Shown one piece after another: positions 3,952-43,427 of a stretch of DNA of 64,000 bases. The stretch is from an uncultured Candidatus Saccharibacteria bacterium. GTDB taxonomy: Bacteria > Patescibacteriota > Minisyncoccia > Minisyncoccales > GWA2-38-27. Each line of letters begins with the position of its first letter. The first letter of the stretch is position 1. The notes under the pieces were generated by a model. That model saw only the letters and a list, made by a program, of their open reading frames with translations, searched no databases and was not told the origin of the DNA. Position numbers and translations under genes: made by a program. The stretch spans positions 2,959 to 66,958 of the forward strand of contig CAZOVC010000002.1 of NCBI GenBank assembly GCA_964583485.1. Direction: 5' to 3'.

Positions 3952-5364
3952 TTATTTCTTAAAAACAATGAATTTATAACCCAGAAAGTTCCAAACCATA
4001 GAAAACATAGTAGCAATTAACGCTCCAACAGTTGCCCAAATCTTGGGAGAAATTCCAGCTTGAGGACCAATTAAATTTACCGCCAAAGAAGCAATTCCCA
4101 CATTTATTACCAGCCCAATCGCGCTTATTATTAAAAATTGCAAAAACTCTGTTCCAGTTTTTTCAACCTTTATCTTTTTAAAGGTCCAGAATTTATTCCA
4201 AAGAAAACTGTTAATTATGGCTATTAAGAAAGAAACTCCTTTAAAAACTGGATAAAAAAGACCAGCAGTAATTCCGGTTAAAAGAATCTGTAAATTAAGC
4301 GCTCCCCAATCAATCAAAGTATTGGAAATTCCTACGGTTGCAAATTTTCCAGCCTGAAAAATAACTGGAACCTTTTTTCCTAAAACATAGGTAATATAAA
4401 GAGAAATTGCAGCTGCAATTGGAACAATAACTGCTAAAAATAAACCCCCACACCAAAAATTTGGTAGTGGGGGTAAACCCAGATAAAGTCCCCAGGTCCA
4501 AAAATCAAGTTCTAAGGTTTTTAAAATTGTAAAAGCCAGCCAGGCAACCATCTCGCCGATAATTAAAGCAGAAATCAAATCAGTTTTTCTCCAAGTAGCT
4601 GATTCTGCTTTTTCTTCTTTTTTCTCATACTTTCCCAAAATCAGATTCTGTTTGATTTTGAATGTCTCAAAAAGCATTTTAACCATACTTTTAAATTTTA
4701 CTTTGCTTTGCGCGTCATTTACCCAGGTTATGGGAATTTCTTTAATTTTATAGCCCAGTTTTTTTGCTATAACCAGAACTTCTGGATCAAATCCAAAATG
4801 GCGAATAAAGATTCTGGAAAAAATATCTTGAGCCGCTTTTTCTTTAAAACCTTTGAAACCGCATTGAGTATCTTTAATTTCCCAAAGGCCAATAATTATT
4901 TTTCTAACTAATTTAAAACCTCCTCCCAAAATTACTTTTCTTATCCAGGGTTGAGGCACAGACAGAACCGCTCCCTTAATATCTCTTGAGCCAATAACAA
5001 TATCATATCCTGCTTCAAATTCCGGCCACATTTTCTCAACCTGATCAATTGAAGTTGAATTATCAGCATCAGTAAAAATTCTATATTCTCCCTTGGCTTC
5101 AAATATCCCCTGTTTTACTCCAAAGCCCTTGCCCAGACGTTCTTTGAACTCAAGGACTTTTAAGTTTTCTATCTCCGGCATCAAATTCTTTACCTTCTCA
5201 ACCGTTCTGTCGCTTGAACCATCGCTTACTACAATAATTTCAGAAGTATATATTTGCTTTTTCAAATAATTATTGATTTCTCGCAAAGTTTTGGGCAATC
5301 TTTTTTCTTCATTATAAGCCGGAATAATGACTGAAAGATAGGTTTTTTGATTTTGATTATCCAT
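3952..5364 (-). CDS. Polyprenyl-phosphate glycosyltransferase: GT2 catalytic domain fused to a C-terminal GtrA-like membrane domain
   Basis: N-terminus IIPAYNEE...VVSDGSSD is a GT2 signature. C-terminus has several TM helices ending NSFLWNKFWTFKK, a GtrA motif. Carries an in-frame palindromic insert at 4441-4477. Confidence 0.7.
   Translation of the reverse strand: MDNQNQKTYLSVIIPAYNEEKRLPKTLREINNYLKKQIYTSEIIVVSDGSSDRTVEKVKNLMPEIENLKVLEFKERLGKGFGVKQGIFEAKGEYRIFTDADNSTSIDQVEKMWPEFEAGYDIVIGSRDIKGAVLSVPQPWIRKVILGGGFKLVRKIIIGLWEIKDTQCGFKGFKEKAAQDIFSRIFIRHFGFDPEVLVIAKKLGYKIKEIPITWVNDAQSKVKFKSMVKMLFETFKIKQNLILGKYEKKEEKAESATWRKTDLISALIIGEMVAWLAFTILKTLELDFWTWGLYLGLPPLPNFWCGGLFLAVIVPIAAAISLYITYVLGKKVPVIFQAGKFATVGISNTLIDWGALNLQILLTGITAGLFYPVFKGVSFLIAIINSFLWNKFWTFKKIKVEKTGTEFLQFLIISAIGLVINVGIASLAVNLIGPQAGISPKIWATVGALIATMFSMVWNFLGYKFIVFKK
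4441..4477. repeat. Copy A of a bulged palindromic element (taaacccccacaccaaaaatttggtagtgggggtaaa), inserted in frame inside the GT2-GtrA coding sequence; encodes LPPLPNFWCGGL
   Basis: Nearly identical to 14700-14736 and degenerately to 42911-42946. All copies keep the same single-base bulge asymmetry (CACACC versus GGTAGTG). Confidence 0.6.
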
Positions 5365-5415
5365 TGCTTTTATTTTAACATTAAAGATGTTAAAATACTA
5401 TTAAGAGAATATACT

Positions 5416-7173
5416 ATGTCTAATCGTCTCACAAATTTAATCGCCGGGCTCCTGCTTATTATGGTATTCTTGGTTTGCTTTTTCGGTATGAAGAATGATT
5501 CAGCCACAATGGATGAAATGTCTCATATCCCGGCTGGCTATTCTTATTTAACACAGAAAGATTTTCGGATTAACCCGGAGCATCCGCCATTGGTAAAAGA
5601 CTTAGCCGCTGTTCCGCTTCTATTTTTAGACCTAAATTTCCCAGAAGACCATACTTCCTGGACTCAAGGAACTAATGAACAATGGAACTTCGGTTCTCAA
5701 TTCTTATATTATTCAGGAAATAATCCTGATCAAATTTTGTTTTGGGCCAGAATCCCAATGATTCTGCTTTTAATATTTTTAGGCTGGTTCATATTTCGCT
5801 GGGCAAAAGAATTAGGAGGAAACAAAGTTGCTCTTTTGGTCTTAACCCTATTTTCCTTCTCCCCTACTTTTTTAGCCCATGGAAGATTGGTAACTACTGA
5901 CGTGGCTGCGACCTTGGGAGTAGTTATGGCTTCTTATTTCTGGATAAAATTTCTAAAAAGTCCCACAAAAAAGAATATAATCTTAGCCGGCCTGATATTT
6001 GGAGTATCAATGCTTTTAAAGTTTTCTTTAGTTCTGGTTGTTCCCCTCTTTGCTGTAATTACTATTGTTTATACTCTCTTAAGGAAAAAACCTCTCCTAA
6101 AATATATTGGTTTGGCTTTTTTAGCAGGGATAATTGGAATGGTTCTTATCTGGCCGGTTTATCAGTTTCATCTTTTAAATTATCCAGCTGAACGCCAATT
6201 GCAGGATTCTAAGATTATTTTATCTTCGGGGGGTATAAATACTATAGAAAGTATTTGCGTCTGGATGGCTGATAAACCCGGATTAAGACCTTATGCTCAT
6301 TACTTTTTAGGGCTTCTAATGGCCAGTCAAAGAGTATCCGGCGGCAACACTGTGTATTTTTTTAATGAAATTTCAAATAGGGGCTGGTGGTATTATTTCC
6401 CTGTTGTTTACCTTTTAAAAATTCCTTTAGCTTTTCATATTTTAACCTTGATTGCTCTTTTATATGTATTCTGGCTAATTATAATTAAAAGGCCTTTCTG
6501 GCAAAATGTTTTTCATAGAATAAAAGAATGGATAAAAAATCATTTTCCCGAATTTTCAATGTTGGTATTTTTGGCAATTTATTGGTTCACTTCCATAACC
6601 GGAGCTCTTAATATTGGAATAAGGCATATTTTGCCTGTTTTTCCTTTCACATATATTTTAGTTGGTTTAGGAATATCAAAATGGATAAAAAGAATATCCA
6701 GCGCATCCTGGAAAAAAATGGGAATTTCTCTTGTCTCTGCGCTTCTGGGCTTTTACATAATTTCTTCTCTTTTGATTTGGCCCCACTATCTAACCTATTT
6801 TAATGAAATTGCCAAGGGTTCTAAAAATGGGTACAAATATGCAGTGGATTCAAACTATGATTGGGGCCAGGACTTGAAAAGACTAAAAAAATGGGTGGAT
6901 GAAAATGAGATTGAGAAAATTTATCTTAGTTATTTTGGCGGAGGCAACCCTGAATATTATCTAAAGGAAAAATATGCTCCCTGGTGGGGTGACCGTAATA
7001 AAAAAGAACTTCCTCAAGGAAGTTATTTAGCAGTCTCTTTAACATTGCTTCAGGGAGGTAAGGGAAATCCTGCTCCCGGTTTTGACCAGCCAACCGGCTA
7101 TTATCGCTGGCTTGACGATTATGAGCCAATAACTAGAATTGGCAATTCAATATTTATTTATTATATTAATTAA
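5416..7173 (+). CDS. GT-C fold glycosyltransferase (ArnT/PMT/GT39-like, uses a polyprenyl-phosphate-sugar donor); integral membrane
   Basis: Many TM helices and an N-terminal DE motif (MDEMSHIPAGYSY). Divergent from the GT2-GtrA gene, so the pair looks like a donor-synthesis and transfer unit. Start chosen at the Met at 5416 to avoid overlapping the divergent gene. Confidence 0.6.
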   Translation: MSNRLTNLIAGLLLIMVFLVCFFGMKNDSATMDEMSHIPAGYSYLTQKDFRINPEHPPLVKDLAAVPLLFLDLNFPEDHTSWTQGTNEQWNFGSQFLYYSGNNPDQILFWARIPMILLLIFLGWFIFRWAKELGGNKVALLVLTLFSFSPTFLAHGRLVTTDVAATLGVVMASYFWIKFLKSPTKKNIILAGLIFGVSMLLKFSLVLVVPLFAVITIVYTLLRKKPLLKYIGLAFLAGIIGMVLIWPVYQFHLLNYPAERQLQDSKIILSSGGINTIESICVWMADKPGLRPYAHYFLGLLMASQRVSGGNTVYFFNEISNRGWWYYFPVVYLLKIPLAFHILTLIALLYVFWLIIIKRPFWQNVFHRIKEWIKNHFPEFSMLVFLAIYWFTSITGALNIGIRHILPVFPFTYILVGLGISKWIKRISSASWKKMGISLVSALLGFYIISSLLIWPHYLTYFNEIAKGSKNGYKYAVDSNYDWGQDLKRLKKWVDENEIEKIYLSYFGGGNPEYYLKEKYAPWWGDRNKKELPQGSYLAVSLTLLQGGKGNPAPGFDQPTGYYRWLDDYEPITRIGNSIFIYYIN

Positions 7174-7254
7174 CCCCGGTTAAATACTGCTTCGCAGTAA
7201 TTTCACCAAAGGTGAAATTATTTAACTGGGTTAACGATTTTCAGGGTAAACCCT

Positions 7255-14138: not shown

Positions 14139-15629
14139 TTACTTTGGACGCATTGTAGGAAATAGAATTACTTCTTTTAACGAGTGCGAATCAGTTAATA
14201 AAGCTGTTAATCTGTCGATTCCCATTCCAAAGCCAGCAGCCGGAGGCATTCCATACTCCAGGGCCTCAATAAAGTCCTTGTCCATTCTCTGAGCTTGTTC
14301 AAAACCTTTTTTAAATATCTTTTCCTGCTCTTTAAATCTTTGCTCTTGAACAAGAGGATTATTTAATTCAGAAAAAGCTTTGACTAACTCAATTCCCATA
14401 GCAATAAATTGAAAGCTCGCTGATTTAGAAGGATTTTTATCTAATGGCTTTGCCAAAGGAAAAGTTTCTGCAGGATAATGGATAACAAATGTTGGCTGTT
14501 CTATTTTAGGCCTAATAACTTTTTTAAATATCTCATCAGTTATTTCAAACTTTCCTCCTTTGCTCTCTATGCCTAACTTTTTTGCTTCTTTTCTAAGAGC
14601 GTTCTCATTTATTTCCTCTAAATCAATTTTAGTGTGTTTTCTAAATATCTCATTAAATTCAACCCTTTTATACGGAGCCTTAAAGTCTAATCTCTTTCCT
14701 TTACCCCCACTACCAAAATTTTGGTGTGGGGGTTTATATTCAATAATTGTTTTATTAAATAAGTTTTTAATCACAAAAGCAAGCATTTTTTCTGTAAACT
14801 TCATCAGCTCTTTATAATCAGCATAAGCCCAATAAAACTCAAGCATTGTAAAATCAGGGTTATGAGCCCTATCTATTCCTTCATTTCTAAAGCATCTTCC
14901 TATTTCATATATTTTTTCAAACCCGCCTACTAAAAGACGTTTTAAATATAGTTCTAAAGATATTCTTAGATATAAGTCAATGTCTAAAGCATTTAAATGA
15001 GTTTTAAACGGCTTTGCCGTAGCTCCTCCATAAATTGGCTGTAAAATCGGCGTTTCTACTTCTAAAAACCCTTCTTTATCTAAAAATGACCTGATTTCTT
15101 TAATAATTCTTGAACGTAATTCAAACCTTTCTTTAACTTCAGGATTAAAAATCAAATCCAAGTATCTTTTGCGATAACGCTCTTCAACATCTTTTAATCC
15201 ATGCCATTTTTCAGGCAAAGGCAAAAGCGATTTGACCAGAATCTTGTAATCAGCAGCTTCTAAGGTTTTCTCTCCTTTTTTGGTTTTGAATAAAATCCCT
15301 CTTATTTCAATAAAATCGCCGATGTCAAAATTGTCCAGAAAAAACTGAAAACTCTTTTCTCCCAACCGGTCTTTTTTGAATAAAGTTTGGATTTGGGCTG
15401 CGCCGTCTTTAATGTGGGAGAAAACCAATCCGCCGTGCTGTCTCAAAGATATTATCCTGCCTGCTAAAATTATTTCTTTTTTCAGCCGAGCCAGTTTGCT
15501 AAAATCCTCAAGAGCTTGTTGGCAAGTATGGGTTCTTTTTGTCTGGCCTGGATAAGCCGAAAACCCGACATTCTCAATTGCCTTAAGTTTCTTTATTCTA
15601 TTTTTCCGAATTTCATCAATAGTCGCCAT
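14139..15629 (-). CDS. lysS: Lysyl-tRNA synthetase, class II; carries an in-frame palindromic insert
   Basis: CFRNEGIDRAHNPDFTMLEFYWAYADY motif 2 region and a GFGMGIDRL motif 3. Segment KPPHQNFGSGGKG is encoded by the palindromic element at 14700-14736. Confidence 0.88.
   Translation of the reverse strand: MATIDEIRKNRIKKLKAIENVGFSAYPGQTKRTHTCQQALEDFSKLARLKKEIILAGRIISLRQHGGLVFSHIKDGAAQIQTLFKKDRLGEKSFQFFLDNFDIGDFIEIRGILFKTKKGEKTLEAADYKILVKSLLPLPEKWHGLKDVEERYRKRYLDLIFNPEVKERFELRSRIIKEIRSFLDKEGFLEVETPILQPIYGGATAKPFKTHLNALDIDLYLRISLELYLKRLLVGGFEKIYEIGRCFRNEGIDRAHNPDFTMLEFYWAYADYKELMKFTEKMLAFVIKNLFNKTIIEYKPPHQNFGSGGKGKRLDFKAPYKRVEFNEIFRKHTKIDLEEINENALRKEAKKLGIESKGGKFEITDEIFKKVIRPKIEQPTFVIHYPAETFPLAKPLDKNPSKSASFQFIAMGIELVKAFSELNNPLVQEQRFKEQEKIFKKGFEQAQRMDKDFIEALEYGMPPAAGFGMGIDRLTALLTDSHSLKEVILFPTMRPK
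14700..14736. repeat. Copy B of the bulged palindromic element (tttacccccactaccaaaattttggtgtgggggttta), in frame inside lysS
   Basis: Its reverse complement matches copy A at 36 of 37 positions. Also explains the antisense ORF 14560..14817 containing PLPPLPKFWCGG. Confidence 0.6.
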
Positions 15630-15738
15630 TAACTAATTTTACCAAATAGCTAAAATAAAAACAAGGAACTAAGCTCGTTAAACTATAAAAACACCTTAAC
15701 TTTGCCATCACAATATTAAAGTGTTTCTTTTTCTTTAT

Positions 15739-15770
15739 GCCAAAAATTGTCCAATCGGACAATTTTTGGC
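15739..15770. promoter_or_regulatory. Palindrome gccaaaaattgtcc-aatc-ggacaatttttggc, immediately upstream of the cassette 1 promoter
   Basis: A paralogous palindrome, gccaaaaatccgacgatcgtcggatttttggc, sits upstream of cassette 2 at about 17264-17297. Confidence 0.45.
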
Positions 15771-15775
15771 ACACC

Positions 15776-15804: not shown

Positions 15805-15896
15805 GTAAATAGTAAACCTCGTTAAAAAATGAGATTTTCTAACGGGGTAAAAAGAATAAATTCTTTGTTTAAAATTTTATTTGGAAAGGAAATAAA

Positions 15897-17082: not shown

Positions 17083-17377
17083 TATTTAATTCTACCAAAT
17101 AATATATTTTAGGTCAAAACCCTGTAGAGAAAATTTGATTTGCCCTGCAAGAAAAGATTTTCTAAAAGAAAATCTTTATCAAATTTCTTCTACGGGATCA
17201 AAAGAAAAAAAACAAGGAACTAATTATAAACTATTTTTTCATAAACCATCTTTATCTTTGTATGCCAAAAATCCGACGATCGTCGGATTTTTGGCACCGT
17301 CTCTTAAATTTCTTAATTTTTTGACTCTTAATCTCGACTCCTAATATAGACGGCCGTCTGTTTTGAGAGTCAAACTA

Positions 17378-20083: not shown

Positions 20084-20131
20084 AATACGAGAACTGTTCT
20101 CGTAGAGCTCTACGAGAACAGTTCTCGTATT
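20084..20131. promoter_or_regulatory. 48-nt perfect nested palindrome (aatacgagaactgttctcgtagag|ctctacgagaacagttctcgtatt) spanning the murD stop codon and the murD-ftsW junction
   Basis: Read from the sequence. Half of it encodes the murD C-terminus IRELFS. Confidence 0.5.
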
Positions 20132-21363
20132 GCTTTAACAAATTGTTCTCCTCTGTCAAATTCGTTCTCAAATAAATTAAAACTTGCTGCTCCGGGAGAA
20201 AGCAAAATAATATCTCCTTTTTGAGCCAAGCTCCTTGCCCTTTTAACTGCTTCTTTCATAGACCTTGCAGAAAAAGCAGGGACCCGGGTCTCTGTCAGCT
20301 CCCTTTTCAATTTATCAGAAGCTGTTCCCGGCAATAAAATAAGATGTTCTACGTTCTTTTTTATCTCTTTAGCTAATTGTTTGTAGTTTAATTTCTTGTC
20401 TTGACCACCGGCAATAAGGATAATTCTTGAAGTGGAAAACCTCTTTATTGCCAATATAGCTGATTGGGGCGTGGTAGCGGTAGTATCGTTAATATACTTT
20501 ACTTCATTTTTTATCGCAACCAGTTCTTGCCTATTGGGAACACCTCTAAAATTAGAAAGAACTTTTTTAATGTTCTTTTTGGGAATTTTGAAAATTTTAG
20601 CAACAGAAACAGCGGCGGAAATGTTGGAATCCCTGAAAAAATAAACTTTTGACAGCGCTTCTTTGGCCAGATTTCTTGTTTCAGGATTATTATAATTTAG
20701 AATTAAAATATCGTTTTTCTTCTGATATTTAAAAATCGACTTCTTTGCTTCAATATAGTCATTAAAGTTTTTATATCTATTTAAATGGTCTGGAAAAAGA
20801 GTGGTGATAACGGCTATATGAGGACTTTTCTTTAAATCCTCTAACTCAAAACTGGAAAGTTCCAAGACAACTTTTGTTTTTTTATTTACCCTGCCTAAAA
20901 CCTCCAGGGGCGAGATTCCGATGTTTCCGGCCAAAACAGTATTTGGAAACTTAGTTTCCAAAAATAAATAAATAAGAGTGGCGGTGGTTGATTTGCCTTT
21001 AGTGCCGGTAATTCCAATAATTGACGCCGGGCATAAATCAAAAAATATATCTATGTCTGTTTTTACAGAAATATTATTATCTTTGGCGATTTTTAAATAT
21101 TTAGATTCTCTAAAAACACCAGGGTTCTTGATAATTAAATCAGCATTAATAAAATCTTCTTTTCTGTGTTTACCTAATACAAATTTAACCCGGTTAAGTT
21201 TTTTAAGTTTTTTAATTGACTCTTTCAGTTCCTTTCTGGTTTTCAAATCAGTAACTAAAACTTTAGCTCCTTGTTTATGGAAAAACTTAGCAGCGCCAAC
21301 TCCCCCGCCGAGCAAACCCAACCCCATAATCACAATCTTTTTGTTTTTAAATAATTTTTTCAT
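20110..21363 (-). CDS. murD: UDP-N-acetylmuramoylalanine--D-glutamate ligase
   Basis: IVIMGLGLLGGGVGAAKFF Rossmann N-terminus and a GITGTKGKSTT P-loop. Confidence 0.88.
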   Translation of the reverse strand: MKKLFKNKKIVIMGLGLLGGGVGAAKFFHKQGAKVLVTDLKTRKELKESIKKLKKLNRVKFVLGKHRKEDFINADLIIKNPGVFRESKYLKIAKDNNISVKTDIDIFFDLCPASIIGITGTKGKSTTATLIYLFLETKFPNTVLAGNIGISPLEVLGRVNKKTKVVLELSSFELEDLKKSPHIAVITTLFPDHLNRYKNFNDYIEAKKSIFKYQKKNDILILNYNNPETRNLAKEALSKVYFFRDSNISAAVSVAKIFKIPKKNIKKVLSNFRGVPNRQELVAIKNEVKYINDTTATTPQSAILAIKRFSTSRIILIAGGQDKKLNYKQLAKEIKKNVEHLILLPGTASDKLKRELTETRVPAFSARSMKEAVKRARSLAQKGDIILLSPGAASFNLFENEFDRGEQFVKAIRELFS

Positions 21364-29847: not shown

Positions 29848-30033
29848 AAAAACCAAGGCAGAAATCTTATTTTTTGAATAAATCACAAAAAGCTCAAGTC
29901 AAACGATTTGAGCTTTTTCTTTTTTATATTTCTTATATTTTTTATATTTCTTTTCTATCTATATTCAATATATAATATATTCATATTCACTATATTAATA
30001 TTCACTATATTCAATTATTCAATTAAATTCTAC

Positions 30034-30063
30034 AAACTACTACACTACGTAGTGTTGTAGTTT
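30034..30063. promoter_or_regulatory. Near-perfect 30-nt palindrome aaactactacactacg|cgtagtgttgtagttt, upstream of the yerC-like gene
   Basis: A paralogous palindrome lies at 30662-30695, just downstream of the same gene. Confidence 0.45.
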
Positions 30064-30123
30064 ATGGAATTGTGTTACAATTAAATTATAATTAAATAAT
30101 TAATAAACAAAAATAAAAATAAT

Positions 30124-30630
30124 ATGAAAAAATACTCACAAATTTCAAACAAAGAAAAGAGTAATTTATTGCAAGAATTCTGCGAAGCAATTTCTGTTTT
30201 AAATAACCCAAAAGAAATAATGGACTTTATAACTGACCTATTAACAAAACAAGAAACTATAATGGTAGCTAAAAGAATTAAAATTGCAAAAATGCTAATT
30301 ATTGGAAAAGATTATCAAGAAATTCGGAATTCCTTAAAAACAAGCCCTGGTACAATATCTAAAATAAATCAATGGTTATTAGAATCAGGAGAGGGTTTTA
30401 GAATAATTGCGCAAAGAACCAAAAGAAAAGAATCTAAAAAGATAAAATCGGAATATAGTGAATTAAAAAAACTCAAAAGACGATACCCTATTATGTTTTG
30501 GCCAGAACTTTTAATCAAAGATATAATAAAAACAATGAACGCAAAGCAAAAAGATAGAATTAAAAAATCTATAAAAAATTTAGATCGTAAATCTGAAATA
30601 TACAAACAAATAGATAAAGCTTTAAAATAA
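30124..30630 (+). CDS. Trp-repressor-like DNA-binding protein (YerC/YecD family)
   Basis: LLTKQETIMVAKRIKIAKMLIIGKDYQEIRNSLKTSPGTISKINQWL resembles the YerC/TrpR HTH. Confidence 0.55.
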   Translation: MKKYSQISNKEKSNLLQEFCEAISVLNNPKEIMDFITDLLTKQETIMVAKRIKIAKMLIIGKDYQEIRNSLKTSPGTISKINQWLLESGEGFRIIAQRTKRKESKKIKSEYSELKKLKRRYPIMFWPELLIKDIIKTMNAKQKDRIKKSIKNLDRKSEIYKQIDKALK

Positions 30631-30661: not shown

Positions 30662-30695
30662 ACAAACTACTGCACTACGTAGTATAGTAGTTTGT
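30662..30695. promoter_or_regulatory. Second copy of the caaactact..cactacgtagt..agtagtttg palindrome
   Basis: Read from the sequence. Together with 30034-30063 it flanks the yerC-like gene. Confidence 0.45.
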
Positions 30696-41323: not shown

Positions 41324-42561
41324 TCTTTTATTATTTCTACCTCAATGCCAAAGTTTTCTAAATTTTGTTTAGCATTATCACCAATCTGTTGCGCTAAAAC
41401 TTTGTCCGCCCTCACTGCTTTGGTAAATCTTGCTCCATGAGGAGAACCTTGCTCAAAGTAGGGATTTTTAATCACTTTTTTTAATAAAATATTTCCATCT
41501 TTTTTATCTATAACTAAATACTGACCCGCGCCGAATTGTGAACTTAGTTCTTTATTTTCTAAAGGGATAATAATTCTTTCTCCCATTTTCTTAGGCCCGA
41601 TTTGCTCAAAGCCTTCCAGCGCTCCTATTCTCTTTCCCAGTTTAGGCAAAACAACGCTCCTGGCGAGCTCATAAGCCTCAATAGAAATAACTATTTGCTT
41701 TAATTCTGGAATATTTGTGAGCAATCTTTCCTCTAAAGTACTGATTATTTTTTGAACATCTTCAACTTTTAATTTTGGAGCCAGTTTAATTTTTATTTCA
41801 GCGAAATTAAAAGCTCCAATTTTTCTGGTTTTTAAATTAGAAATTTCTATTTTGTGGGAAGAACAAATCTTTTCAATTCTTCCTTCTACGTCTTTATTAG
41901 CTACATCCAGCAAAGAATCAGTAATCTCTCTTCCCACTCTAAATGCCTCATAGAGAATATAGCCGCCAATAAATAAAGCAATTATGGCATCCGCTGAATT
42001 GAAATATCTAACTAAACTAAGCCCCGCTAAAACACCAATTGAACTAAGAACGTCAGCTCTTGAATGCTCGGCATCAGCAACCAGGGCTAAACTTTGATGC
42101 TTTCTTCCGTAATGAAATTTTAATCTGGCTAAAACTTCTGTAATTAGAATGGAGATAACTACCACTGCTATTGCCCCAACACTAAGTTTGACTATTTTTT
42201 CTTCAAAAAATCCCGTAACTGCTTCATACAAAATCCAAATACCAGATACCGCCAGCAATAGAGCTACCAAAAAACCAGCCAAACTTTCTGCTTTCCAATG
42301 GCCGTAAGGGTGTTTTTCATCAACTGGCTTTCTGGCTATCTTCAATCCCAAAAAAGTAATAAAAGAAGAAAAAACATCCAAACCAGAATGTACTCCATCG
42401 GCAATTAAAGCCACACTGCCAATTAAAAAACCAAAAATTAGCTTAGATATTCCTAAACCTAAATTAACAAAAATGCTGATTATTGAAACAGATTGAGGGT
42501 TCATATTCTTCCTCGACCTCTCCTTCTCTGACCAGGTCCTGCTCCAAAACCAGGCCCGCAA
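41299..42561 (-). CDS. Cation diffusion facilitator (CDF) transporter fused to a C-terminal NifX/NafY-like domain
   Basis: CDF TM core with the HSGLDVFSS motif. The C-terminus (ERIIIPLENKELSSQFGAGQYLVIDK...VLAQQIGDNAKQNLENFGIEVEI) resembles the dinitrogenase FeMo-cofactor-binding fold. Confidence 0.55.
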   Translation of the reverse strand: MRAWFWSRTWSEKERSRKNMNPQSVSIISIFVNLGLGISKLIFGFLIGSVALIADGVHSGLDVFSSFITFLGLKIARKPVDEKHPYGHWKAESLAGFLVALLLAVSGIWILYEAVTGFFEEKIVKLSVGAIAVVVISILITEVLARLKFHYGRKHQSLALVADAEHSRADVLSSIGVLAGLSLVRYFNSADAIIALFIGGYILYEAFRVGREITDSLLDVANKDVEGRIEKICSSHKIEISNLKTRKIGAFNFAEIKIKLAPKLKVEDVQKIISTLEERLLTNIPELKQIVISIEAYELARSVVLPKLGKRIGALEGFEQIGPKKMGERIIIPLENKELSSQFGAGQYLVIDKKDGNILLKKVIKNPYFEQGSPHGARFTKAVRADKVLAQQIGDNAKQNLENFGIEVEIIKEWPKELKP

Positions 42562-42905
42562 GGCGCTGCTCCTTTCGCCTCTTGAAGCTTGCCTCTCTGA
42601 TATTCTTGAAGAACGTCTCGCACACTCATTGCTGGATTACCGAGAAAAATCTTTATTCCAGAAGTGCCTAAAACCATTGAAGCGTTAGGTCCAACATTTC
42701 CAGTAATCACTATCTCAACTTTCTCCTTAGCTACAATTTGGGCAGCCGAAATACCAGCGCCTCTCATCGCCTGCACCCCGGTATTTTTAATTGTTTTAAT
42801 TAGTTTTCCCTTATCACTAACAATCAAAAAATACATCGCTCTGCCAAAACGAGGGTCTAAAGCTGTATCTAAATTATTACCGGTAGCGCTAATACAAATT
42901 TTCAT
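42501..42905 (-). CDS. NifX/NafY-like (dinitrogenase iron-molybdenum cofactor family) protein with a Gly/Arg-rich tail
   Basis: MKICISATGNNLDTALDPRFGRAMYFLIV..., tail GPGFGAGPGQRRRGRGRI. Confidence 0.55.
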   Translation of the reverse strand: MKICISATGNNLDTALDPRFGRAMYFLIVSDKGKLIKTIKNTGVQAMRGAGISAAQIVAKEKVEIVITGNVGPNASMVLGTSGIKIFLGNPAMSVRDVLQEYQRGKLQEAKGAAPCGPGFGAGPGQRRRGRGRI

Positions 42906-42910
42906 AATAT

Positions 42911-42946
42911 TTTATCCCCACTACCAAAATTTGGTGTGGGGATTTA
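42911..42946. repeat. Copy C (degenerate) of the bulged palindromic element, filling the whole intercistronic gap and supplying the TAA stop of the upstream (minus-strand) gene
   Basis: The sequence tttatccccactaccaaaatttggtgtggggattta spans from the NifX-like start codon to the DUF5320-like gene stop. Confidence 0.5.
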
Positions 42947-43168
42947 TCTGGTTCTGGTCATTGCCCCGCCGCATTTAGGGCATTTGTGTTCATAGCAAGG
43001 CACTCCTCTTTGATGAGGCGTTTTTGTCCCACAACTTGGACAAACACATTCACCCCCAGGACCTAAACCGTAACCACCGGACTGACGACCACGACCGCCG
43101 CCCCTGCCTAAACCTTGTCCTGTTCCTGGCCCCTGACCAGCAGGACCTGTACCATTAAAATTTGGCAT
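42944..43168 (-). CDS. DUF5320-like N-terminal motif protein with a C-terminal zinc ribbon
   Basis: [28 protein letters not shown] ... CVCPSCG...CPKCGG. Confidence 0.45.
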
Positions 43169-43169
43169 A

Positions 43170-43427
43170 TTATTTTTTCTTTTTTAGTTCCTCAAGTCGG
43201 TCCTCAAAAACCTTCATCTGTTCTTTCAACGCATTCATATCTTCTTGAATCATTTCTTTTTCTTCTTTAGCAGTCGGCTGAGCTGCAGGATAATACCCCC
43301 AACGCCTCCAACCCCTTCCTCTGCCAAACCAACCTCGCCCAAAACCAATTCCGCCTCCGCAAGGGCCTAAACCTCTTCCCGTCATTGGACCTTGACTTAA
43401 AGGACCCGTTCCATCTCTAAATGGCAT
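43170..43427 (-). CDS. DUF5320-like protein (Gly/Arg-rich N-terminus plus C-terminal coiled coil)
   Basis: [42 protein letters not shown] ... [24 protein letters not shown]. Confidence 0.5.

Follow-up and report, generated by a model that had tools for sequence, protein, structure and literature searches.

A 29-base palindrome inserted in frame into two genes of a Candidatus Saccharibacteria genome and its probable link to small GIY-YIG nuclease cassettes

Palindromic DNA within coding sequence is known from yeast mitochondria, in which mobile GC clusters of 30-50 bp can sit in frame in var1, and from Rickettsia, the palindromic elements of which (RPEs) are about 100-150 bp long. To our knowledge, no nuclease cassette is associated with the yeast clusters, and no mobilising gene has been identified for the RPEs. 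Ogata et al. 2000 are said to have found the RPEs in frame within housekeeping genes. The Ssn nucleases, which are of the GIY-YIG type, cut single-stranded DNA beside hairpin repeats, which border the nuclease genes themselves and have multiplied within genomes (PMC11893778). The authors (Chenal et al., Nat Commun 2025) remark on the IS-like architecture of this arrangement and leave open whether Ssn-type nucleases mobilise the hairpin repeats. Of the NTS in N. meningitidis, 2% lie within genes, and Patescibacteria are not mentioned in the paper (PMC11893778). The locus analysed here, from the genome of an ultra-small bacterium of the Patescibacteria, carries in frame within two genes a palindrome whose ends are also those of small GIY-YIG cassettes.

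Three copies in the window and their host genes

The window, that is, the whole stretch of 64,000 nt analysed in this study, contains three copies of the palindrome, all of them where the initial annotation had placed them: copy 1 at 4441..4477 (minus strand), copy 2 at 14700..14736 (plus strand) and copy 3 at 42911..42946 (plus strand). The annotation had described an element of 36-37 nt. This span is correct, but the unit is a core of 29 nt (4445-4473 in copy 1, 14704-14732 in copy 2) or 28 nt (42915-42942 in copy 3) with one 4-nt copy of the target duplication at either side, and the net gain is 33 nt for the 29-nt core. The duplication had been given as TTA/TAA; it is in fact TTTA, found at 4441-4444 and 4474-4477 (TAAA on the plus strand, TTTA on the element strand), at 14700-14703 and 14733-14736, and at 42911-42914 and 42943-42946. 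The core consensus of the three copies is CCCCCAC(T)ACCAAA(A/T)TTTTGGTGTGGGGG, each with a direct TTTA repeat at both sides, and its 13-nt terminal inverted repeats are CCCCCAC(T)ACCAAA and TTTGGTGTGGGGG. Copy 3 has T:A instead of C:G as its outermost pair, with a change at either end, and its centre is shorter by 1 nt. This copy had been taken for a REP-like thing apart from the others; with the TTTA duplication common to all three, it is an insertion like the other two.

Folded as single-stranded DNA, each copy forms a hairpin of 13 bp in which a single base is bulged (dG of -11.7 to -13.0 kcal/mol, z of -3.4 to -5.2). A 27-nt pattern, allowed 3 mismatches at most, found copies 1 and 2, and had 0 matches in 100 dinucleotide-preserving shuffles; a half-site search of the window recovered copy 3 too. 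At the gathering threshold, Rfam gave one tRNA in the whole window and nothing else.

As had been claimed, two copies lie in frame within ORFs and one lies between genes. Copy 1 is located in a gene (3952..5364, minus strand) for a bifunctional GT2 / GtrA-family glycosyltransferase of 470 aa, the orthologs of which have GT2 and GtrA Pfam domains, and its insert falls within the membrane (GtrA) half of the protein. It has the orientation of this gene, both being on the minus strand, and its codons give (L)PPLPNFWCGG(L), the peptide LPPLPNFWCGGL of the ORF. Copy 2 lies antisense to the gene of a class II lysyl-tRNA synthetase (LysRS; 14139..15629, minus strand, 496 aa), in which its codons give (K)PPHQNFGSGG(K), the peptide KPPHQNFGSGGKG. 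The two peptides, both quoted correctly at the outset, differ because the copies have opposite orientations relative to their host genes. Copy 3 is intergenic, between an ORF of the Nitro_FeMo-Co family just downstream on the minus strand (42501..42905, 134 aa) and a Gly/Arg-rich ORF just upstream on the same strand (42944..43168, 74 aa). The upstream ORF has its stop codon inside the 3' duplicated TTTA of copy 3, and on the gene strand the G-run of this copy precedes the ATG at 42905 by about 10 nt.

Comparison with orthologs showed that both intragenic copies are insertions. The LysRS orthologs (73-91% identity) are 485-486 aa long, as against 496 aa, with exactly 11 residues missing, and the 11-residue segment is absent from LysRS and GT2-GtrA orthologs at 85-91% identity. 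Orthologs without the nucleotide palindrome are thus also without the peptide segment, as the initial reading of the segments as inserts implied; its estimate of about 12 codons for LysRS becomes 11 on measurement. The filled site is longer than the empty site by exactly 33 nt, the sum of the 29-nt core and the 4-bp target duplication. On the gene strand of LysRS, the empty site reads GAATA-TGAA-GGA and the filled site GAATA-TAAA-[29 nt]-TAAA-GGA; in the glycosyltransferase gene, the empty site reads GGG-TTTA-TTG and the filled site GGG-TTTA-[29 nt]-TTTA-TTT. Since the difference equals core plus duplication, the window copies are insertions and not ancient loops. Thirteen contigs, drawn from at least 4 samples, carry the LysRS with the insert, which is therefore no assembly artefact. 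In a sequence alignment with solved LysRS structures, the insert has no counterpart. An AlphaFold2 model of the insert-bearing LysRS, built on a 20-sequence alignment, had a mean pLDDT of 42, too poor to place the insert. Judged from these sequence comparisons, the 29-base palindrome is a genuine miniature mobile DNA element inserted in frame, with a predicted gain of 11 amino acids, and the inserted codons would be translated into protein.

Other sequences in the window were also considered. The segment TTTTGGACCTGGGGAC beside copy 1 was ruled out as the remnant of a second element, as it aligns with the orthologous segment TTTTGGG(T/C)(T/A)GGAAGA, and a 27-nt difference near copy 1 is a deletion between TTGAT repeats. 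A decayed hairpin of a sister family lies at 15813..15851 in the intergenic region upstream of LysRS (core 15817-15847, termini CCCCGTTAGA...TCTAACGGGG, TAAA/TAAA flanks). At 7170..7235, a third related family is represented by an intergenic element of 56 nt (core 7175-7230, CCCGGTTAAAT...ATTTAACTGGG, two internal hairpins, TTAAC/TTAAC flanks).

The family in Patescibacteria and its nuclease cassettes

The search for more copies yielded many, spread over other genomes and over various genes. Fourteen loci were found in Portnoy-, Nealson-, Berkel- and Saccharibacteria MAGs, with different flanks at each, and a metagenome scan gave more than 119 stretches with the element. A scan of viral contigs for the element gave no match. 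The collection scans required the core pattern, so the family statistics are conditioned on the core sequence; the counts in this and the next paragraph are among the matches listed, from which 126 unique copies on other contigs were analysed. In its commonest form, the element is a perfect palindrome of 26-30 nt without a bulge, and the bulged copies make up a subfamily, with T as the bulged base in 26 copies and C in 8. The conserved bulge had been regarded as a sign of structural constraint, a view that does not hold for a family in which most members are perfect palindromes. The target duplication is exactly 4 nt: it is exact in 51/123 copies against 13.8 expected, while exact flanking repeats of 3 nt occur at no copy and of 5 nt at only 4. 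The duplicated sequences are varied (TAAA, TTTA, TTGA, CTTG, CCAG, CAGG, CGAG and others); the tetramers are of the form TNNA or CNNG and are never self-complementary. A target duplication of fixed length, the lack of coding capacity, and many copies at unrelated sites are all features of a miniature inverted-repeat element (MITE). A literature search found no paper on such an element in Patescibacteria, in agreement with the initial annotation. The palindrome belongs to a large and apparently undescribed family in Patescibacteria metagenomes.

The copies within genes obey a length rule. Among the matches listed, bulged copies of 29 nt lie within long ORFs in 19 of 24 cases and those of 28, 30 or 31 nt in 0 of 10 (p=2e-5); for all copies, lengths compatible with 3n are in ORFs in 27/67 cases and other lengths in 3/59 (p=2e-6). 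Here 'in a gene' means open-frame length; Pfam supports the assignment for 16 of 17 hosts of bulged copies that were checked beyond the window. Hosts confirmed by Pfam include KsgA, PheT (PheRS-beta), AlaRS, ThiI, MnmA, CTP synthase, TatD, FemAB and DegT, among others. The 29-nt core and its duplication make 33 nt, or 11 codons, a multiple of three owing to the extra base of the bulged subfamily, and are free of stop codons in 5 of 6 frames. The gain of 33 nt without a stop in 5 of 6 frames would therefore allow LysRS and the GT2-GtrA protein to accommodate the inserts as additional loop residues.

Longer elements with the same 13-nt termini are 71-294 nt in length. In a cassette of 283 nt, the sole ORF is an intact 84-aa single-domain GIY-YIG protein (PF01541, E=6e-18; Pfam gives PF01541 only). 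At 7/7 independent genomic sites checked, the ORF of this nuclease family (84-91 aa) is bounded by CCCCCACACCAAA...TTTGGTGTGGGGG. The termini are unbulged in all seven cassettes, none with a bulged terminus being found among them, and a perfect duplication (TTTA) is present at only 1/7 nuclease-bearing copies. The catalytic residues are invariant in 17 homologs. The nuclease family comprises 1196 clusters at 90% identity and, with E<=1e-10, 946 clusters at 50% identity; the nearest PDB entries to the 84-aa protein are the UPF0213 proteins 1ZG2 and 1YWL. Only two phage-type relatives of the protein were found, both partial and without the termini. The sister family with CCCCGTTAGA termini repeats the whole pattern, with a GIY-YIG cassette of 277 nt and a TTCA duplication. 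The start of the nuclease ORF lies 1-9 nt past the terminus and leaves no space for a ribosome-binding site, which makes the expression of the nuclease hard to account for.

It is conceivable that the 33-nt insert of LysRS is the ORF-less leftover of a 283-nt cassette. We judged this unlikely, since the cassette would have broken an essential gene. The reading is also disfavoured by the 24 bulged copies in unrelated genes, which have one common centre. This common centre speaks for the spread of the small element itself.

Mobilisation and rival explanations

We consider it probable, for the explanation as a whole, that the three copies are non-autonomous miniature elements of Patescibacteria which consist of terminal inverted repeats only and are mobilised in trans by a GIY-YIG nuclease. 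In each case, a GC-clamped hairpin of 29 nt (28 nt for copy 3) went into a TTTA site, the 4 bp of which were duplicated. The two arms of this hairpin are the same 13-nt termini that bound the 283-nt cassettes with the 84-aa UPF0213/Ssn-like nuclease. The nuclease may recognise the hairpin or cruciform formed by the termini, and would carry out the cleavage and joining by which its own cassette and, in trans, the ORF-less palindromes are mobilised. Selection would then filter the copies, so that within genes only frame-keeping lengths persist. The window copies are thus probably ORF-less, MITE-like derivatives. A tblastn search of the 64-kb window for the GIY-YIG gene gave nothing below E=16, and the source of the trans-acting nuclease presumably lies elsewhere in this genome. 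It is also possible, though we put it forward only tentatively, that the 277-294-bp cassettes, with one 84-aa ORF between 13-bp inverted repeats and a 4-bp TNNA/CNNG target duplication, are the smallest autonomous DNA transposons known, and that the GIY-YIG nuclease is a novel type of transposase in prokaryotes. The ORF-less derivatives of 26-30 bp would then have settled in frame in essential genes across the Patescibacteria, among them three or more aminoacyl-tRNA synthetases, and several terminus families would have co-diversified with their nucleases.

There are other possible interpretations of these results. A terminal inverted repeat with a target duplication of fixed length is the classic signature of a DDE transposase, and GIY-YIG enzymes are, as far as we know, hydrolytic nucleases without known strand-transfer activity. 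The copies could accordingly be ordinary MITEs of a DDE-type insertion sequence (IS5, IS701 or IS1380-like), with the true transposase acting in trans and the GIY-YIG ORF as a passenger or homing endonuclease in the palindrome loop; as in MITE families, the termini are common to elements of many sizes. Over about 0.9 Mb of retrieved loci, however, pairs of termini never enclose more than 294 nt and no full-length transposon was found, whereas a GIY-YIG gene is the only ORF between the termini at 7/7 sites, fitted within a few bases, and is likewise paired with a second terminus family. The TNNA and CNNG tetramers, never self-complementary, are also unlike the targets of IS5 and piggyBac, which are YTAR or TTAA. 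We therefore regard a DDE origin as unlikely. A mechanism of the REP/RAYT or IS200/IS605 type, in which a Y1 (HUH) transposase recognises the bulged hairpin and moves it as single-stranded DNA, would account for the size, which is close to that of REP, for the GTAG tetranucleotide within the bulged arm, and for the likeness to the ends of IS608, which are imperfect palindromes with an extrahelical T. The majority of the family, however, has neither bulge nor GTAG, and the element has a true 4-bp duplication of varied sequence, whereas IS200/IS605 and REP are not known to create one on insertion. Copies are mostly intragenic (19/24 for the bulged 29-nt copies, among the matches listed), while REP is extragenic, and on an incidental look no Y1 transposase was noticed near the copies, the associated ORF being GIY-YIG. 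A Y1 mechanism is thus very improbable.

Patescibacteria depend on DNA uptake, and a host-domesticated hairpin repeat with an Ssn-type single-strand nuclease, the copies of the repeat serving in cis to tune natural transformation or recombination, would suit this habit. Such a role would be compatible with mobilisation by the nuclease; the Ssn/NTS system is a precedent (PMC11893778), and the partner here is a single-domain GIY-YIG of similar size. Insertions with target duplications in essential genes, missing from close orthologs, nevertheless have the look of spreading selfish DNA. Moreover, 19/24 of the 29-nt bulged copies, among the matches listed, are intragenic against 2% of the NTS in N. 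meningitidis, and the published SRM motif is unmatched by the element. Domestication on these terms seems distinctly unlikely. That the segments are ancient protein loops, palindromic by accident, or chance palindromes is favoured by their being in frame and by nothing else; orthologs at 85-91% identity are without them, the identical 29 nt recur in unrelated genes and phyla, and the shuffles contained no match, so that we count this reading as refuted.

Comparison with known systems

If the link between nuclease and palindrome holds, the 84-aa nuclease and the 29-nt hairpin would be a testable pair that could settle whether GIY-YIG/Ssn-type nucleases mobilise their associated hairpin repeats. 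The small, streamlined genomes of Patescibacteria would then harbour selfish DNA within their most essential genes, with the cost of the insertions limited by the rule that core plus duplication is 3n. Each terminus family may have a nuclease of matching specificity, the kind that the Ssn work aimed to collect. The elements would also account for short lineage-specific inserts in conserved proteins, and may account for some contig breaks in metagenome assemblies.

Bacterial MITEs (Correia, Nezha and others) also have terminal inverted repeats, a target-site duplication, no ORF, and ends in common with a longer ORF-bearing element. The ORF-bearing relative here, however, is 283 nt long and its product is a nuclease instead of a DDE transposase, and we know of no MITE as small as this element, which consists of only two 13-nt termini. 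REP/REPIN-RAYT and IS200/IS605 are likewise short, imperfect, amplified palindromes with a hairpin recognised by a small enzyme whose gene they flank, but that enzyme is a Y1 HUH protein instead of GIY-YIG, and REPs are extragenic. The mobile GC clusters of yeast mitochondria are similar as GC-rich palindromes that spread in a very AT-rich genome, possibly in frame in a protein gene; they are organellar, eukaryotic and of unrelated sequence.

The closest known systems are the RPEs and the Ssn/NTS hairpin-repeat system of 2025. The likeness to RPEs, pointed out in the initial annotation, holds for behaviour: in both cases the genome is reduced and AT-rich, and its housekeeping genes tolerate palindromic repeats that keep the reading frame and add a stretch of peptide. 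The Patescibacteria unit differs from RPEs in its size (26-30 bp), lineage, unrelated sequence, defined 4-bp duplication and candidate partner gene. It resembles Ssn-NTS/SRM in that a single-domain GIY-YIG gene of about 90 aa goes with a short hairpin repeat that is also scattered genome-wide in many copies, and the gene here could be taken as bracketed by that repeat. The SRM consensus HGTCWYN(0-2)YYVSBRHN(0-5)WNVSBRGN(0-2)RNCYNB had no match in the window, the three copies included. In the Patescibacteria, the gene is enclosed by the halves of a single palindrome, whereas the Ssn gene lies between two complete hairpins, and the Patescibacteria copies have a 4-bp target duplication and are mostly intragenic and in frame, in contrast to the 2% of NTS within genes.

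Palindrome insertions in the LysRS and GT2-GtrA genes

The palindrome reported in the initial annotation was found at all three of its positions. Oriented so that the left arm holds the extra T, the element is TTTA CCCCCACTACCAAATTTTTGGTGTGGGGG TTTA in copy 1 (4441-4477, minus strand), TTTA CCCCCACTACCAAAATTTTGGTGTGGGGG TTTA in copy 2 (14700-14736, plus strand) and TTTA TCCCCACTACCAAAATTTGGTGTGGGGA TTTA in copy 3 (42911-42946, plus strand). A 27-nt pattern allowing up to three mismatches matched copies 1 and 2, with no matches in 100 shuffles. A half-site search also picked up copy 3, in which one central base is gone and the outermost C:G pair is changed to T:A on both sides. Folding the copies as single-stranded DNA gives, for each, a 13-bp stem that carries a single bulged base and closes in a 3-4-nt loop (dG -11.7 to -13.0 kcal/mol, z -3.4 to -5.2). 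Since the G+C content of the window is 32-39%, the copies are GC-clamped hairpins within AT-rich DNA. Five of the six frames of the bulged core with its flanks are open, and the sixth holds a TAG made by the bulge. The host genes of copies 1 and 2 are both on the minus strand and the element orientations in them are opposite; the encoded peptides therefore differ (LPPLPNFWCGGL vs KPPHQNFGSGGKG).

The LysRS of the window has 496 residues. Of the 119 non-identical relatives closest to it, which reach down to about 70% identity, nearly all have 485-486. In an alignment of 20 LysRS relatives, KPPHQNFGSGG was present in the window protein only, and the remaining sequences close the gap exactly. On the gene strand, the filled site is GAATA-TAAA-[29 nt]-TAAA-GGA and the empty sites at two loci are GAATA-TGAA-GGA and GAATA-CAAT-GGG, a gain of 33 nt. 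Likewise, LPPLPNFWCGG is missing from GT2-GtrA orthologs of 85-89% identity, whose empty site, GGG-TTTA-TTG, compares with a filled site of GGG-TTTA-[29 nt]-TTTA-TTT in the window. The filled and empty sites of both genes therefore indicate that the event comprised the 29-nt core plus a duplicated TTTA target, 33 nt in total. Orthologs without the segment and empty sites 33 nt shorter thus bear out the earlier claim of an insert rather than an ancient loop. The insert-bearing LysRS is present on 13 contigs from at least 4 samples, and is therefore no assembly error. The solved LysRS structures 9SLZ and 3A74 have nothing that corresponds to the insert. Its position on the Geobacillus LysRS sequence is QYGE|H, which we take to be a turn joining two short strands.

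The window GT2-GtrA gene also lacks (at 4478-4505) 27 nt present in orthologs (AVIYQTMID), about 25 nt upstream of the element. In the orthologs a TTGAT direct repeat stands at each end of this segment, and we therefore read its absence from the window gene as an independent slippage deletion. The stretch between the gap and the element has diverged more than the rest of the gene. Three LysRS orthologs in the alignment (P0014, P0042 and P0080 of A1) carry other lineage-specific inserts at different positions (22 aa, TKPLTIFPKSNQVKQTGQKMVR; 7 aa, ALPAGRQ; 15 aa, YPSEAKGEDERMFID), which could be other element families.

Copy 3 lies in the spacer between two genes (42906-42946). Its duplicated TTTA contains the stop codon of ORF 42944..43168. 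On the gene strand, its GTGGGGA precedes the ATG of a Nitro_FeMo-Co gene by about 10 nt, the position at which a ribosome-binding site would be expected. Two adjacent small Gly/Arg-rich ORFs of 74 and 85 aa, the second a DUF5320 match, occupy 42944-43427.

Family size, target duplication and reading frame

Further copies, as expected of a mobile family, were found elsewhere. Scanning one genome per species for exact matches gave 14 further loci with flanks all different, from MAGs labelled in the deposited records as Portnoybacteria, Nealsonbacteria, Berkelbacteria, Saccharibacteria, 'Patescibacteria group' and, in one case, Margulisiibacteriota. A looser scan of metagenome contigs gave at least 119 stretches. 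The 126 copies analysed are the matches listed after removal of duplicates, and the family statistics are conditional on the search pattern used and on which contigs were assembled. No account of such an element in Patescibacteria turned up in the literature searches.

The commonest form among these 126 copies is an unbulged perfect palindrome, CCCCCACACCAAA-(0-4 nt)-TTTGGTGTGGGGG, of 26-30 nt. The bulged form is a subfamily, with a T bulge in 26 and a C bulge in 8 of the matches listed. An exact flanking repeat of 4 nt was observed in 51 of the 123 copies listed, against 13.8 expected from shuffled flank pairs; among the same copies an exact 3-nt repeat occurred in none and a 5-nt repeat in only 4. 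Because the duplicated tetramers vary (TAAA, TTTA, TTGA, TCAA, CTTG, CAAG, CCAG, CAGG, CGAG, CGTG and TGAA), they are target sequence and not element. TNNA or CNNG accounts for 50 of the 51 exact duplications, and none of the 51 is self-complementary.

Among the matches listed, bulged copies lay in long open frames in 19 of 24 cases when the core was 29 nt and in 0 of 10 when it was 28, 30 or 31 nt (Fisher p=2e-5). For all copies listed, counting as in an ORF only those with 70 or more open codons to either side, 27 of the 67 in which core plus 4 nt is divisible by three were in ORFs, as against 3 of the other 59 (p=2e-6). From this rule we infer that the inserted codons are translated. The hosts are conserved proteins: KsgA, PheRS beta, a ComM/Mg-chelatase-like ATPase, AlaRS, a cation-efflux transporter, ThiI, FemAB, MnmA, CTP synthase, TatD, a GHMP kinase, two DegT aminotransferases, a deacetylase and a GT4 glycosyltransferase. 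The element was antisense to the host gene in 16 of 19 cases, reading PPHQ(N/K)FG(S/G)GG (binomial p=3e-9 vs one frame in five). This excess may come from the commonness of xxT-AAA (Lys) contexts for the TAAA target, from selection for a flexible Pro/Gly-rich peptide, or from a strand bias of insertion. When its centre is 8 nt, the core is 28 nt long without the one-base bulge and 29 nt with it, and the latter comes to 33 nt once the duplication is added. The conserved bulge, initially read as a constraint on structure, is thus better explained by descent within the subfamily plus this length filter than by selection for the bulge as a structure.

Longer elements and sister families

A search for unpaired termini in the fetched loci of other contigs revealed longer elements, of 71, 74, 100, 145, 283 and 294 nt, that share these ends and are likewise flanked by duplications. 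The 283-nt element (L057, 4074-4356) holds a single intact 84-codon ORF encoding a GIY-YIG domain (PF01541, E=6e-18). Its ATG is one base past the left terminus, with no room for a ribosome-binding site, and its stop codon adjoins the right terminus. The 294-nt element is a homolog with a frameshift. The protein family comprises 1196 clusters at 90% identity, almost all of 84 residues, and 946 clusters at 50% identity (E<=1e-10). The catalytic residues are invariant, and the closest solved relatives are the UPF0213 proteins 1ZG2 and 1YWL. At independent genomic sites of family members, the ORF lay between CCCCCACACCAAA...TTTGGTGTGGGGG in 7 of 7; the duplication was a perfect TTTA at one of these sites and had one mismatch at three. 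No cassette with a bulged arm was seen, and no GIY-YIG gene was found within the 64-kb window.

Many 50%-cluster representatives (among proteins P0361-P0510) are 100-130 aa long with N-terminal extensions of 25-45 residues, and others are 230-290 aa with C-terminal extensions. Translation running on from a host ORF into the cassette might account for the short N-terminal extensions. Two composite elements with family termini (L004, 5154-5298, 145 nt; L074, 1099-1198, 100 nt) each hold a complete small bulged palindrome with CGAAG/CGAAG flanks. Since its internal position is equivalent in both, the nested form itself was copied.

The fetched loci contain many members of a second terminus family, CCCCGTTAGA...TCTAACGGGG, whose sizes span the same range and whose duplications are likewise 4 nt; its 277-nt member (L080, 4493-4769) has a GIY-YIG ORF and a TTCA duplication. 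A decayed hairpin of this family, CCTCGTTAAAAAATGAGATTTTCTAACGGGG, lies intergenically upstream of LysRS (15813-15851, core 15817-15847) with TAAA/TAAA flanks. A third family is represented by a 56-nt element at 7175-7230 (CCCGGTTAAAT...ATTTAACTGGG) with two internal hairpins and TTAAC/TTAAC flanks, directly downstream of ORF 5347..7173 and with relatives in L005, L010, L023, L028 and L070.

The window has other palindromes. At 20084-20131, two inverted 19-nt hairpins (TACGAGAACnGTTCTCGTA) form a REPIN-like 48-nt perfect palindrome at the junction of two minus-strand ORFs, overlapping the 3' end of ORF 20110..21363. Intergenic palindromes at 15738-15771 and 17263-17296 have common outer arms, TGCCAAAAAT...ATTTTTGGCA, but differ in their inner arms; the one at 17263-17296 shows no evident flanking duplication. 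Related palindromes at 30026-30071 and 30662-30695 (ACAAACTACTnCACTACG and its complement) surround a 168-aa ORF (30124..30630) in a hairpin-gene-hairpin arrangement; by eye, this ORF is no GIY-YIG protein.

Possible mode of spread and comparison with known systems

The window copies are ORF-less, terminus-only members of a mobile-element family whose ORF-bearing members encode the small GIY-YIG nuclease only. The small elements must spread as such, because LysRS would be destroyed by an insertion of 287 nt that brings in a stop codon and because 24 bulged copies in unrelated genes have a common centre. GIY-YIG enzymes are not known to join DNA, and a fixed-length target duplication is a hallmark of DDE transposases; it is therefore possible that a trans-acting transposase moves the element and that the nuclease is a passenger. 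The nuclease ORF, however, is the only one found between family termini in the fetched loci.

The ortholog empty sites and the family copies support the initial comparison with in-frame Rickettsia palindromic elements. The element is best described as one of the hairpin repeats tied to small GIY-YIG nucleases, with behaviour like that of Rickettsia palindromic elements, and is set apart by its unusually small size, by a defined duplication of its target and by a candidate autonomous partner only about 283 bp long.

The published precedent is the Ssn family of single-domain GIY-YIG proteins of about 94 aa, which cut single-stranded DNA beside hairpin repeats; the genes of these proteins are themselves flanked by the repeats, which have multiplied to hundreds of copies, an IS-like architecture on which the authors remarked (PMC11893778). 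In both systems a small GIY-YIG gene is associated with a hairpin-forming repeat. The present repeat, however, does not match the SRM consensus, and its hosts are Patescibacteria, which are not mentioned in PMC11893778. In contrast to the Ssn system, the gene here is enclosed by the arms of a single palindrome, the 4-bp duplication is clean, and the copies are mostly intragenic and in frame.
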